A stretch of 64,000 bases of DNA from Podarcis liolepis (lineage: Eukaryota): the NCBI GenBank assembly GCA_965112155.1, contig OZ218101.1. One strand, 5' to 3'. Shown piece after piece: positions 46,161 to 52,073 of the stretch (within the stretch, counting starts at the first letter, position 1; the number at the start of each line of letters is the position of its first letter). A program made the translations under genes and the position numbers. The notes below the pieces were generated by a model, which saw only the letters and a list, made by a program, of their open reading frames with translations, did no database searches and had not been told where the DNA came from.

Positions 46161-47365
46161 GCCTCAGGTAGGCATAGGCCTGTGCTTGTGAACTGGAAGC
46201 ATGAGACGGCTCTCTTTGTACATCCCTGGTTGTTGGTGAACTGCAGGTGCCATATAATAGGCCACAGATTTGTTACCCCCATTCCTCAGCCTCTATGGGG
46301 ATGCAGTAGCCCTTAATTCACTCACATGTGCAAAGCCTTTCTGAGATGCTCTCACATTACAGGCTGCAAAGCATTACAGGTATTATTTGTAACTAGTCGG
46401 TTCCCCAGCTGACATTCCTCTCCCTTTCAAGATACCATGAGCTGCTCCTCTCACCAAGACTTTTATTTTATTTTTAATTCCAAGACAGTGCCAGCTAAGA
46501 GCCTGAAGGGACTGAGTGACGCCGGAAGATTAAACAGGCTAGATACATACAGTTTAGTTAAACGATGGACACAATATCTGTCTCTGAGGCTCTTTTTGTA
46601 CTTCTTGAAGCACGTTACACTGAGCTTTATTTTATTTATAATTTGTTTTTATTTGCACGCAGCAGGAGAGATACTAAACTCGCCGTAAATGTGACATGGA
46701 GACGTAGCATCGCATAGCTGCAGATGTTACATGAGGTTAACATGATGCAGTTAAACTGCTGTGTCAGAAATGCTGCCCCAGCGGGGAAATAATAACACAG
46801 CCTCTCGGAATTGGCTCACACAGCTAGTGGACACAAGGCATCCTTCCTGGCCTTGAATCTGCAAGTAGCTATGCATGTGGGGAAGAGGCAGGCACTAAGC
46901 AGCTAAGGAGTACCAGGCTGGGACTTTAAATTCTGAACCTGTTAGCAGCGCTGACAACTGGAGGAGCCTTGTCACAGAAACACCTGCAATGCCTCATTGA
47001 TCAGTAGTTGAGAAAAGGAAAGAGGAGAGGTAATAATAGGACATTAAGCCAGCATGTGCCCAATGCACAGAACCAGTAGGACGCAGAAGCCGTGGTAACA
47101 GCAACATAAACAGAAGGGAGAGATTAACTTAAGGCAATAGGGAGCACCTGGATATTCCACAATGGAGCAGGGATGCTCAAAGAATTTGGTAATTCATTAT
47201 GAACTGACCTGGCCCAATGTGCACCTTAGTTATCCTTCTTTCATATTTCCTAAATCAACTGTGCTGGTCCCGGGGGGGGGGGGGAGGTACTAATACCGTA
47301 GCCAAAGTTCAGTCCAGAGTCACTAGCAGGGTAGACGATCACTAGATGAGACGCGAGGTCCGAAA

Positions 47366-47572
47366 CAGGGAGCCGGGCGGGTGAACAGGAACGCTGGTAG
47401 GGCAGCAGCAGGAAGCCAGGCGGGGAACAGGAACACTGGTAGGGCAGAAGCAGGGAGCCAGGCGGGGAACAGGAACACTGGTGGGTCAGCAGTGGGCAGC
47501 CGAGCGAGGAACAGGAACACCGGAGAGTCGGTAGCAGAAAGCCGGGCGAGGAACAGGCACATTGGGAGTGCA
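47366..47572. repeat. 42-bp tandem repeat (~4.5-5 units) inside LTR 1
   Basis: GAACAGG(A/C)AC-initiated units at 47383, 47425, 47467, 47509 and 47551. Confidence 0.9.
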
Positions 47573-47656
47573 GATCTAGGTCTGGGTAACAGCAGGTACT
47601 CCACAACGACGTTGCTCCCGCAACCTGGGACCGGGCTGCCTGACCTTTATCTTCTT

Positions 47657-48007
47657 CTAAGGCCGGGGGCGGTCCCGGCCCCCAGGAGCCCCGCCTCTCC
47701 TGGCCTTAAGGCGAACACTCCTCCTGGGAGAAACCAGTTCCCTTCGCCTCTCTGCCCTAAGCCTCTGCAATTCAGGAGAGGCCAAAGGGTTACTGGGCCC
47801 CCGGGGAGGCTCACCTGTAGACACTGAGTCCTCCAGCACCTCTGGGGCCAGAATGGTTTCACCTGGTGCCTGCCCCTGAGGATCTGGCACAGGTGCGGGC
47901 TCCTCAGCATCTAGGCCTTGCCCCAGTTCAGCTGGCCCTGGAGGCAGGGACTCCTGTGCCGGCTGGGATTCCTCCGGTTCACTCTCAGACTCGGAATCCC
48001 AGGCCAT
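47657..48007 (-). CDS. LTR-encoded ORF, 116 aa, acidic/Pro-rich N-half and Arg-rich C-end (SPRRSVRLKAR)
   Basis: ATG at LTR nt 5; open to TAG at 47657. Coding status is inferred. Confidence 0.5.
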   Translation of the reverse strand: MAWDSESESEPEESQPAQESLPPGPAELGQGLDAEEPAPVPDPQGQAPGETILAPEVLEDSVSTGEPPRGPSNPLASPELQRLRAERRRELVSPRRSVRLKARRGGAPGGRDRPRP

Positions 48008-49896
48008 CACATCAACCTTTGGCAACCTGGGGCGCAACAGATATTTTGGACTGCAACTCCAACTGGAGCCCAGCTGTTGTGTGGGTTTTGTAACACCCCT
48101 TTCCACAATTTTCACTAGGGAGGGGAGGGCTGTGGGCAGAATGAAATCAATAAATTGCAGACCTCAGTGAGCCAGGGCATTGCATTTGGGGAGAGTGAAA
48201 GTGGTGGGAGGCCACCATAGATGGGCGCTGTTCAAAAGAAGACTTACTGCTCACTGCTGAAAAGCATTTGAAAGTCTAGTGGGGAGGATGATGAATGGTG
48301 CTGTGACTGGGCCAGGTGGGTCCTCCTAAGTTCTTGGGGTGCTTGGCCAGTGCCCAACTTGTAGGGACTCTCATTGGTAGCAAACAACATGTGAAATTTC
48401 ATTTCCTGCTGGAGCCTATAAGGGGATGGCTGTGCCTGACTTGAATTGGAGTCACCTTATTGCAGGTGGGGTTCTTTTTGGCATATTGAGCCCCTATATT
48501 TTTAAAATATTCACCACATTCACATTTGTGCTTTCCTAGTCATCAGGAAGTTTAGAATTCAAAGGCAGAAAGTCACCCGGGGTCCTCTACTTCAAAGCAC
48601 ACCCTAGCAGATTAGCCAGTGTGGTTCAGATTTTGGTACCGTGCACTCCACATCAAGTAACTTTAGTAAATATCATTAATGCAGCATTGCTTAAGCAAAT
48701 GGGCCCAATGAAGCAGTTCCTTTCAAGCATCCCCCATCCCCGATTCCTTTTGTTTGTTAATCTCACTGATTAACCAAGGGACACATTTTCAGCTAAAGCT
48801 TTATTCCAGGAGCTGCCAATCTGCTTTAGCCCATGGGCATGTTTGCAAACCAGAGAAACTGCTGAGTGCAGTAGATGGTTTATTTCAAGCCCAACCAGGG
48901 AAGAGGCAGGGGAAGGAGACCCTGTGGGCAGCACGGAAGGCCTCTGTGGGTGCATCAGTGACCATGGGCACCACCTTGGTGATCCCTGCTTTAACCAATC
49001 AATTGAATGTGAACATTTTGCAATGCTGCATAGGAATATAGAGGAAGCCCCATTCTCAGCTGCCATTCTAACCCTAATCCCCTGCATTGGACATAATAGA
49101 TCTACCAAGCACTCCTTCTATTAATCTCACAGAAACCTGATGTGTAGATGGGCACATGCAATTCTCCTTTGAACAAGGCCCTTCCCTTAATTGACTTTAG
49201 CTCTTATTACACATTTCTTATCAGAGTCCTTAGAAAACTTGCACGTGTTTTTGCACCACTCATCAGCAGTGTCTCCAAGGTGCAGGGTTTCCTTCAGGAG
49301 GAGATGGGCAGCCGGCAGGCAAAAGGGATAATTGCATGGCGAATGAAATTCTACGGCACATTGGAGATGGAAATATCACCTTAACAAGCATGGACAGCCC
49401 CCAATGGACTATAAAATTCATTTGGTGAGTGAGATAATTCAAAGAGCCAAGTGACGCAGCAGTAGGAGCTAGAACACATAAATTTAAGCTTTCAGAGCTC
49501 CACCAGGATCCAGCAGAGCCCCCAGTGTGCTTTATGTGGGTACACAAAAATCTTGCAGGCATTCAGTGCTGATCAATCCAGATCAATCCTCTCTCTGTGT
49601 GTGTGCACAAAGTTTGTGCACAAAATCTGTGCACAAAGCCTGCACATGAAGTCCAGGTCATGCAGTGAATATTTTGGAACTGACCCCATGCTGTGTCCTT
49701 CTGCCGAGAACTGTATGGTCCCTTCTCTTTTTTCCTTTCTAAAAAGTTTTTAGCATTGCCAGTCTCGTTACTGAAACTAATACTGGCTAATATATTAGTT
49801 TTACTCTGATACTGTTTTTGTTGTGTTCAAGTGGTTTCATTTAACAAATATTATGAGGACTTGTCCTTAAAGAGCAGGCGGGGGAATAAAGTCAAT

Positions 49897-50175: not shown

Positions 50176-50195
50176 CAATAGTCAATAAATACACC

Positions 50196-50952
50196 TGTCA
50201 GAGCTGCTTCCAGATCCGAGCTCACAGAGGATCACGCTAGCCAGCTTTCACTGTATAAAAGTCTTTATTGATTTACAGTTTCCATTTCCAAGCTGCAGCG
50301 CGCAACTCTACGTCTTATAAGCTAGACCGGCGAAGCTCCGTCTGAGTCCCCGCCTCCTGTACACCAACTTAATACCCTAGCCTTACTCCATCTTTTCCTC
50401 CTGACCGTTCTTCTCTGGGTCCCTCTGCCCCCCGTGGTCTCTTCCTTCCGGGACTCTTCTAATGCTGACCCCCCGGACCCTTCTGTCTCCTTGCGGCGGG
50501 CTTTAGGACCTGGCTCCCTTTCCGGGCTGCTTACTGTGCCGCCTTCCTGTGCATTTGAACTTGGCGCGCGCGCCCAACCTCCCACTTTCCGTTTGACCGT
50601 TTCTTCTCTCTCCGATGGAGGTGTGGCCACTCCTGACTCATGTCCTCCCCCCTGCGGCGAGCCGCCTGATCCCGATGCCTGGCGCCCTTCCTCCGCCCTG
50701 CGCTCTGTTGGGGATGTTGGCCCCGATTTCCAACTGCTGCTCTCTGAACCCCCTTTTGTCCCTTCTTCCTGGGGTGTCCCCCTAAGCTCCCCCCTTGCTC
50801 TGGTCACTGGCGCTCCTTTCTGTGAATCTTCCGATTCACTGGAAAGACTCGGAGATCTCGGGTCGTCGTCATCGCTCATCTTTCCTTCGGACTCCTCCCC
50901 TTCACTCTCTGTTTCCTCCCTTGCCCTCGCCTCTGCTCCTGAACCCCTGACA
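50196..50952 (-). mobile_element. Solo LTR 2 (Gypsy-like, 757 bp)
   Basis: TGTCAG...CTGACA ends; perfect TSD ACACC (50191-50195 / 50953-50957); AATAAA on the minus strand at ~50264-50269. Confidence 0.92.
50322..50951 (-). CDS. LTR-encoded ORF, 209 codons; acidic/Ser/Gly disordered region with basic W-C-containing C-terminus
   Basis: Open from LTR nt 2 to TAG at 50322 (first in-LTR ATG at 50879); codon-level conservation with LTR 3. Confidence 0.6.
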   Translation of the reverse strand, partial: VRGSGAEARAREETESEGEESEGKMSDDDDPRSPSLSSESEDSQKGAPVTRARGELRGTPQEEGTKGGSESSSWKSGPTSPTERRAEEGRQASGSGGSPQGGGHESGVATPPSEREETVKRKVGGWARAPSSNAQEGGTVSSPEREPGPKARRKETEGSGGSALEESRKEETTGGRGTQRRTVRRKRWSKARVLSWCTGGGDSDGASPV

Positions 50953-51456
50953 ACACCATAAACACATAATATTTGGCTATATGAACAACCCATTCTAGCC
51001 ATTCAAGCGAGACAGGTTTGGGTGCCAGCCACTGTACCTCTTCCAGTACCAACTACTGTTTCCCTGCCTCTCCCACCAGAAGACCTAGATGTCATAGGGT
51101 CTTATAGGTAGCTCTGGGATTGTTATGCCAAAGAAAATGCAGGGGGACTATTACATTATGGTGCATGAGCCAGTGGTCACCAACATGGTGCCCTCCATAG
51201 TGATGGAATACAGCTCCCATCTGTCCCAGCCAGCAGGAACAGTGTTCAGAGATGATGGCAGCTGGGACCCAAAAATACATTGACTAGCCCTGCTCTGAGC
51301 AAGCTCAAGATGCTCCACTCCTTTTGTACATTCTGCAATCACCTGGAAGACTTTCCTTTTCTCCCTGGCATCTGTCGCCCTGTGTTTAGGACCGCACAGA
51401 TTCTTAAATATCTAACTGCATCTTTACTTCTTTACTTTTCCCCTGATTTGGCTTTT

Positions 51457-51615
51457 AATACGATACGATATCTTTATTGTCATTGTCCCATGCAGAACAA
51501 TGAAATTGAAAACTATATAAAACTACATAAAAACTACATAAAACTACTAGAAAACTACATAAAACATTCAAAACCCCCTAAAAACTCTAAAACCCCATTT
51601 TAAAATACACTATAG
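51457..51615 (-). mobile_element. Rex1/Babar-like LINE 3' end with an 11-bp AAAACTACATA minisatellite
   Basis: Minus strand ends AATTTCATTGTTCTGCATGGGACAATGACAATAAAG + (TATCG)n. Confidence 0.55.
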
Positions 51616-51830
51616 TATAGTGTATTTTATCATTGCAATTACTGCTTCTGTGTTCCTTACTTAGGCCTCCCTAAGTGCTTTTCTTAAAAAAACAGCAAGT
51701 GGAAAAATGATTTCGATTCTAAACAGGGTTACGGTAAATAGGGGTGCTGGCCAGTGATACTTGCCCTTTCCACCTTTTCTTCTTTTGGGATGGTCTGGAA
51801 CTATTTAGCCCAGATCCTTATAAAAAGTGG

Positions 51831-52073
51831 TGTCATGGGCTCAGGGGCTGAGCCACAGCAGGAGGAGGAGAGGAAAAGGTGGATTAAAGCTCGGGTCTTG
51901 AACTGGTGTAGAGGAGGGGAGGAGTCAGACAGAGCTTTGCCGGTCTAAGGACTCAGACGTAGCGCTGCGCGCCACGGATGTCAAACCAACAATGAACCAC
52001 AATAAAGACTTTTGTTTATAAAGAGCAACTGGCGTTGGTCCTCTGTGAGCTAGGACCTGAGGCAGCGCTGACA
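51831..52073 (+). mobile_element. Solo LTR 3 (243 bp), internally deleted relative of LTR 2
   Basis: TGTCA...TGACA ends; perfect TSD AGTGG (51826-51830 / 52074-52078); AATAAA at ~52001. Confidence 0.92.
51835..51948 (+). CDS. LTR-encoded mini-ORF, 37 aa (MGSGAEPQQEEERKRWIKARVLNWCRGGEESDRALPV)
   Basis: ATG at LTR nt 5; in-frame fusion of the N- and C-terminal parts of the LTR 2 ORF. Confidence 0.45.
   Translation: MGSGAEPQQEEERKRWIKARVLNWCRGGEESDRALPV

Follow-up and report, generated by a model that had tools for sequence, protein, structure and literature searches.

In retroviruses, HIV nef, MMTV sag and foamy virus bel overlap the polypurine tract (PPT) and U3 and are copied to both long terminal repeats (LTRs), as separate open reading frames (ORFs) on their own mRNAs. 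In plant chromoviruses it is the polyprotein itself that extends into the 3' LTR, namely in all elements of CRM group A and in Beta Bingo1-4 and Bingo7, and the LTR-coded part of CRM is a putative targeting domain (PMC3059260, PMC3605345). The chromoviruses of the Tf1/sushi group are characterized by self-priming in place of a tRNA primer (PMC6317226), and V-clade chromoviruses occur in amniotes (PMC2774666). A first-pass annotation of the window, a stretch of 64,000 nucleotides from the lizard Podarcis liolepis, reported a protein-coding frame in solo LTRs and regarded such overlap as no standard Gypsy feature, which does not agree with the plant chromoviruses of PMC3059260 and PMC3605345. 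In the open-access literature we found the Pol-into-LTR layout described for plant chromoviruses only, and for vertebrate elements no account of such a Pol extension, which may nonetheless be present in subscription papers, supplements or Repbase reports.

The frame belongs to a family here called F2, which by its gag, a pol with protease (PR), reverse transcriptase (RT), RNase H (RH) and integrase (IN) between two LTRs, and a short target-site duplication (TSD) is a Ty3/Gypsy chromovirus, with a weak but consistent chromodomain match at the integrase C-terminus that lacks the cage aromatics. Like the V-clade elements Sushi-ichi and Amn-ichi/ni/san of the Tf1/sushi group it has gag followed by PR-RT-RH-IN-chromodomain and is self-priming, and its LTR termini agree with the motifs TGTYANR...CNTNACA of Sushi (PMC3601003). 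Judged by these traits of the sequence, rather than by an RT tree against named members, F2 is a Tf1/sushi-type chromovirus, but unlike in that group its Pol fills U3, with about 370 residues beyond the chromodomain, and the aromatic cage is absent. In common with plant CRM elements, its polyprotein frame enters the 3' LTR and its copies cluster in chromosome regions rich in repeats. However, CRM elements use a tRNA-Met primer whereas the primer-binding site (PBS) of F2 pairs with its own LTR, a CR motif replaces the chromodomain in CRM whereas the F2 chromodomain lies upstream of the PPT and its LTR part has no Pfam family, the host of F2 is a lizard, and the LTR-coded part of F2 has 209-232 residues; the relation is one of convergent layout, not of membership. 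The retroviral genes show the same overlap of coding sequence with PPT and U3, but the F2 frame is continuous with pol, and no env ORF was found in the full element.

Solo LTRs in the window

The positions of the LTRs and their features are given in Table 1; the window's own copies have a mid-chromosome position. The 209 stop-free codons of LTR2 were confirmed, and they cover the inferred U3 completely and extend 22 nt into R.

Table 1. Solo LTRs and their features, with positions in the window
Feature	Position	Strand	Remarks
LTR1, solo LTR of the second chromovirus family, F1	47260..48011	-	TSD GTTGA
LTR1 frame, 117 codons	47657-48010	-	starts at LTR nt 2
LTR2, solo LTR of family F2, subfamily A1	50196..50952	-	757 nt, TGTCA...TGACA
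LTR2 TSD, ACACC	50191-50195 and 50953-50957		5 bp
LTR2 frame, 209 codons and TAG	50322..50951	-	open from LTR nt 2
LTR2 WARAPSSN codons	50552..50576	-	likely DNA-level element (inferred)
LTR2 TATA-like TATTAA	50369..50374	-	within V-L-S codons, 31 nt 5' of the self-primer; putative promoter
LTR2 self-primer, 11 nt	50333..50343	-	LTR nt 610-620, codons S-D-G-A-S
LTR2 AATAAA	50264..50269	-	polyadenylation-type signal by sequence, non-coding 3' part
LTR3, solo LTR of subfamily B	51831..52073	+	243 nt, TSD AGTGG, internal deletion at nt 26/27
LTR3 remnant of the subfamily B Pol tail, 38 codons and TAA	51832..51948	+

LTR3 had been taken for a relative of LTR2 that lacks 513 nt. It is instead a subfamily B copy without 558 nt of that subfamily's LTR, with a single junction: nt 27-243 show 93-97% identity to all 39 other matches listed, which are subfamily B copies of mostly 801 nt, and the deletion is private to LTR3 and common to none of these 39. 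The in-frame nature of the deletion was considered as evidence for selection and rejected, since it occurs in this single copy. A recount over the 33 codons that LTR2 and LTR3 share reproduced the earlier figures, 11 synonymous and 8 non-synonymous differences, exactly; three of the eight (S>I, G>R and S>L) are present in 0 of 30 B copies and are thus changes that LTR3 acquired after insertion.

The 3' part of LTR1 contains 42-nt tandem repeats (47380-47589), whose copy number varies among F1 copies (LTR of 663-752 nt). At the window edge (1-143) there is a perfect 35-nt inverted repeat (1-35 and 109-143).

Full-length elements and the pol frame

A degenerate pattern for the C-terminal codons of the LTR frame has 4687 matches in the genome and a reversed control none. 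The first full element was recovered from two LTR matches 5.8 kb apart, and has by Pfam a gag with a zinc knuckle, then a pol with protease, RT, RNase H, integrase, SH3 and the weak chromodomain. From the chromodomain the pol frame continues through the PPT, where the pol/LTR junction reads G-G-F-E-G-G-M-D-V-R-G, and across all of U3 to a stop at LTR nt 629-631, whose position is constant across subfamilies while the codon is TAG, TAA or TGA. That pol might be in frame with LTR nt 2, as the first-pass annotation had suggested, turned out to be the case: of 30 loci retrieved with the pre-LTR region, 19 have chromodomain and LTR start in one frame, and 12 of the 30 stay open all the way from integrase to the stop in the LTR. 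The remaining 11 are out of frame between chromodomain and LTR, mostly at the G-runs of the PPT, and five of them form one tandem array. A break between integrase and chromodomain in that first element (L031), considered as a sign of a separate ORF, was rejected because it is private to that copy (1/30). In subfamily A5, 15 of 20 loci are open into the LTR stop; unbroken ORFs of 1515-1569 aa in A2-A5 run from protease to the LTR stop with PR, RT, RH, IN and chromodomain, subfamily B has an unbroken 998-aa ORF from RNase H to the LTR stop, and in subfamily E one of two elements is open from SH3 to the stop.

Two UniRef Pol predictions from Podarcis muralis (P0001 and P0002) contain the whole tail, the latter (1498 aa) with 87% identity across the entire 209 aa; these "Gypsy retrotransposon integrase-like protein 1" entries are automatic, and the tail is neither described nor noted as LTR-encoded. 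Neither the 209-aa nor the 117-aa LTR frame matched any family in a Pfam scan, and a search of the ESM Atlas gave no usable match and was uninformative. Assembled contigs from three presumed-RNA runs and one other cover parts of the stretch; no listed piece bridges the PPT-LTR junction, and such contigs do not show start or strand.

The two alternatives offered earlier were a long Pol extension running through the PPT into the 3' LTR and a separate accessory gene, and it is the former that agrees with these data. There is no stop between pol and the LTR frame, and the frame is not a separate ORF with its own start: the first in-frame ATG varies in its alignment column, which is 25 in A1-A5, 14 in both C and E, and either 2 or 14 in B, no ATG common to all subfamilies was found, and the inferred promoter is situated where the ORF ends. 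It is almost certain that the LTR ORF is the C-terminal tail of the element's own Pol.

Selection on the LTR frame

A total of 165 distinct LTR copies fell into 14 groups; five single-copy groups were left out, and 160 copies make up the eight subfamilies compared (A1-A5, B, C and E). The full frame, of about 197-232 codons, is kept in 120 of the 160, with only 13 of 30 copies intact in subfamily B; the intact share is inflated, since the LTR matches were ranked by likeness to intact queries. dN/dS was compared between natural copies, which carry post-insertion noise so that the values are biased upward, and amounts to 0.19-0.36 (kappa 1) or 0.27-0.48 (kappa 3) over all 28 subfamily pairs. When all six frames were examined, as had been proposed, the sense frame was the lowest in all eight pairs tested (0.28-0.45). 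An equal bias in other frames had been named as an argument against selection; four frames have values of 0.9-2.9, but the mirror antisense frame has 0.41-0.58, which is expected because its third positions are shared with the sense frame, and dN/dS by itself is insufficient to exclude it. This antisense frame (window 50326-50961, + strand) is open for 211 codons, and for 373 in full elements, without an early ATG, and is likely a by-product of the sense-frame composition. In seven element pairs dN/dS of the LTR part is 0.25-0.36, against 0.05-0.14 in RT/RH/IN, with a dS that matches that of RT/IN. Within the tail each of the two ends has a pN/pS of 0.35, and the weakly constrained middle one of 0.62.

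A CpG-aware computation on this CpG-rich sequence gives a neutral expectation of about 2.2 non-synonymous changes (N) per synonymous change (S), lower than the approximately 3 assumed before. The synonymous excess nevertheless proved real on the larger data: of the codons with a single change in three independent subfamily pairs, 115 are S and 85 are N (binomial p = 3e-14 against 2.2, p = 6e-6 against singletons, and only p = 0.02 against 5'/3' LTR pairs). The two empirical controls, with N/S of 1.7 for singletons and 1.36 for 5'/3' LTR pairs (38.5 S and 52.5 N in 21 pairs), are below 2.2 and so not purely neutral, and the latter is probably mixed with recombination between copies. Of 67 invariant residues 48 are encoded by more than one codon, and in SSESEDSQK, PKARR and SASEESR the residues are kept while silent sites vary, indicating constraint at the protein level. 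Differences between subfamilies build up in replicating lineages, of which solo LTRs are the products. The purifying selection proposed for the solo LTRs is a signal between subfamilies, and it acted on the multiplying elements, not on the solo LTRs themselves.

Putative promoter and self-primer within the coding sequence

The PBS pairs with the LTR over 10-11 nt, located 146-148 nt from the LTR 3' end, at 27 of 30 junctions, and PBS and self-primer covary as three sequence types (A1-A4/B, A5 and E). We take the primer to be the first 11 nt of the transcript, carried over from Tf1, and the self-primer position then indicates a transcription start at LTR nt 610. TATTAA or a variant is found about 30 nt upstream of the self-primer, inside V-L-S/N codons. 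Further upstream, the eight subfamily representatives agree in seven of the eight codon columns of WARAPSSN, even at silent sites, and this near-invariance suggests a DNA element. The R-W-x-K-A-R-V-L-x-W-C module, which had been assigned to the protein, is conserved in part at the nucleic-acid level, since it overlaps the TATA-like box and the primer and reads WSSVSLLNWC in subfamily E. A start at nt 610 would leave almost the entire ORF upstream of the transcript; solo LTRs would then not be expected to express it, and very probably they do not do so from their own promoter. One stretch of 630 nt would thus be integrase tail, LTR promoter and primer of reverse transcription, a case of dual coding.

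Chromodomain, FxGF motif and tail

The chromodomain is weakly matched by Pfam Chromo (E 0.0095, 16.3 bits, below the cut-off of 25.1) and by HP1/CBX chains (E 0.005), and it also aligns with the canonical chromodomain of F1. At the three positions aligned to the cage aromatics of HP1, F2 has N, K and T, and the aromatic cage is absent. Behind the chromodomain follows LFTPTLSASTFxGFDSD, in which FxGF, with x varying, occurs in 87 of 90 motif matches, a count that takes in overlapping loci, and dN/dS of this stretch is 0.05-0.23. FxGF lies before the LTR, not within the LTR-coded part. A search of 1.84 billion representatives gave 18 matches. FxGF recurs in the distant relatives P0011-P0014, and two distant relatives have the same plan, that is a degenerate chromodomain, FxGF, a junction-like stretch G-G-x-x-E-x-x-D-V, an acidic region and a basic L-L-x-W end; an acidic-then-basic L-L-x-W ending like that of the tail is seen in P0012 and P0013. 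The basic end may also resemble CENP-C motifs, a likeness not used as evidence.

The same FxGF characterizes LEDGF-domain partners (bioRxiv 10.1101/624023), such as the LEDGF/PSIP1 partners MLL1, IWS1 and JIL-1 (DFxGFDE). F2 has STFxGFDSD with an upstream Phe behind its chromodomain, and distant relatives have an acidic F-x(8-10)-FxGF once or twice. The sequence thus has FxGF with an upstream acidic or phosphorylatable linker, but the match is one of four letters and the preceding residues are Ser/Thr in F2, not acidic; furthermore, LEDGF tethers to active chromatin whereas F2 copies crowd in terminal repeats. A complex prediction with the 35-aa FxGF peptide and the IBD of lizard PSIP1 scored 0.01, with controls that were not folded, and is not taken as a verdict on binding. 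AlphaFold2 run without alignment on the 463-aa tail gave a mean pLDDT of 44, which is not used as evidence of disorder since even the chromodomain was not modelled.

The second family, F1

F1 (LTR1 of the window; L163, L164 and L216-L245) has a single gag-pol frame with a canonical chromodomain. Its 117-codon LTR frame ends in RRSxRL..., just before the TATA-like box of F1, and a self-primer-like match is located at LTR nt 391. The frames of chromodomain and LTR agree in 10 of 30 PPT junctions (two spurious matches left out), the low agreement being due to a PPT G-run that varies by one or two bases around the in-frame length, and S:N between diverged copies is 7-9 : 8-12 (the frameshifted copy L236 dropped). 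With these two values the case for the F1 LTR frame as a Pol extension is suggestive.

Distribution along the chromosomes

A5 PPT-LTR junctions were counted by hand among the first 100 of 381 exact matches, 94 of which are on contigs C1-C5. Among these matches listed, 37 of the 94 lie within 1 Mb of a contig end, where 1.7% are expected, and 57 lie away from the ends. Around the crowded A5 copies there are TTAGGG arrays and a satellite of 505 bp. Both LTRs are present at 17 of 20 terminal A5 loci and differ by 0-9 nt, and 15 of these 17 have their own TSD; 10 of the 20 have older F2 sequence within 400 nt, four are beside the 505-bp satellite and one is in TTAGGG. With C20, small scaffolds and second LTRs dropped (expectation 2.6%), the share within 1 Mb of an end is 14/22 for F2 internal regions and 3/22 for those of F1, and for LTRs 6/34 in A1, 1/32 in E and 0/27 in F1. 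Telomeric repeats flank 12 of 31 B LTR rows, some rows being duplicates or belonging together as the two ends of a single element. Most lacertid chromosomes are acrocentric and have pericentromeric arrays that are telomere-like (PMC7290949), and the crowded ends may therefore be centromeric ends.

The 505-bp tandem satellite (L257:7168-7670, L264, L260 and L205) forms terminal blocks, interleaved with F2, on C1, C5, C6, C8, C11, C14 and scaffold C54, and is possibly pericentromeric or subtelomeric; on chromosome-size contigs, with 150 of 260 matches listed, it is found at one end each of C5, C6, C8 and C11. A 185-bp tandem repeat is located at the start of a 1.4-Mb scaffold (L199, G000:C10:1-300), with one related match in L193. 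F2 sequence adjoins terminal telomeric arrays at the ends of C2 and C9 and at the start of C14 (L209, L213 and L214). At L062 (C8:90.25 Mb) and L103 (C5:0.27 Mb) a B-type LTR or element is located between (CCCTAA)n and (TTAGGG)n, and this flip in orientation of the telomeric array may mark recombination between terminal copies. Tandem element arrays with shared LTRs are seen in L080-L084 (C20:8.90-9.04 Mb) and L064-L066 (C5:0.27 Mb). G000:C20, which with 40 Mb is 2.5% of the genome, has 16 of 40 F2 and 18 of 40 F1 internal-region matches and could be the W chromosome.

Possible role of the tail and alternative explanations

There is a high probability that the LTR frame constitutes the last 209 codons of a chromodomain-bearing Gypsy pol, with an acidic tail that likely helps to tether the integration complex at chromosome ends; that the tail acts in target choice is, taken separately, just short of an even chance. 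The frame continuity, the purifying selection between subfamilies, the complementarity of primer and PBS and the end-crowding of young full-length copies are the observations from which the following cycle is drawn. A full-length RNA would start at LTR nt 610 and prime its own reverse transcription, and translation of Gag-Pol would end within the 3' LTR, at the stop at nt 629-631, yielding an integrase in which a degenerate chromodomain is followed by about 370 residues. During reverse transcription U3 would be copied to both ends of the element, and recombination between the LTRs would leave solo LTRs in which the frame persists passively, upstream of the promoter that they carry. With the integration complex tethered by its acidic tail to the chromatin of chromosome ends, new copies may be steered there.

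The same Pol extension may also be a tolerated read-through of U3 without a role in targeting, which stays open and disordered since stops or hydrophobic changes harm the polyprotein or RNA stability, while the crowding at ends reflects survival of insertions in gene-poor terminal repeats; this has a considerable chance of being correct, though less than an even one. It would fit a dN/dS near 0.3, which exceeds the enzyme values three- to fivefold, the many in-frame indels between subfamilies, the coincidence of the best-conserved C-terminal and WARAPSSN codons with nucleic-acid elements, and the lack of end enrichment of the E and F1 LTRs. The 57 of 94 A5 junctions away from the ends and the lower enrichment of A1 LTRs also speak against targeting; full-length elements may simply persist at ends. 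However, SSESEDSQK, PKARR and SASEESR keep their residues despite silent change, very young A5 copies with separate TSDs are already crowded at the ends, and the F1 internal matches are less so than those of F2. It is improbable that the tail, translated within Pol, is released by the protease, or made from a spliced RNA, as an accessory protein such as a trans-activator or an antagonist of host defence, similar in effect to nef, sag or bel: a long, charged, low-complexity region with a basic end, and the similar ending in P0012 and P0013, would suit such a protein, but the LTR has no conserved separate start, and intact copies have neither a stop nor a frame change between integrase and tail.

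Expression of the ORF by the solo LTRs, kept by selection on the host as a domesticated multicopy gene, is hardly conceivable even though the frame is kept in 54 of 75 solo LTRs examined and A copies have an in-frame ATG at codon 25; the copies are young, with a divergence of 1-4% within subfamilies, so that intact frames are expected, LTR3 has decayed, and the inferred promoter is at the 3' end of the ORF. There is likewise next to no chance that CpG mutation, purine-rich composition or the antisense frame makes the pattern without any selection on the protein. CpG transitions, at about 16 times transversions, do lower the neutral N/S to 2.2, and the mirror frame is open for up to 373 codons, but the synonymous excess persists within non-CpG transitions and within transversions, four frames show no deficit, and the sense frame is continuous with pol. 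A bolder extension of the preferred reading, in which F2 is a vertebrate counterpart of the plant centromeric retrotransposons, is rather unlikely. In such an element the methyl-lysine cage would be lost, and the long tail with its FxGF host-factor motif and its LTR-encoded motifs would target terminal heterochromatin (acrocentric centromeric ends and telomeric arrays); U3 would be wholly dual-coding for protein, promoter and self-primer, and the second family would have become alike independently.

Implications

LTR frames of this kind are prone to annotation as spurious host genes (e.g. P0006), and the apparent gene in solo LTRs becomes a case of dual coding. Thousands of copies (the 4687 motif matches) make the protein-level selection on the tail readable. 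If the tail steers integration, this young and abundant family would be a vertebrate system in which the colonisation of centromeric and telomeric heterochromatin by retrotransposons can be studied.
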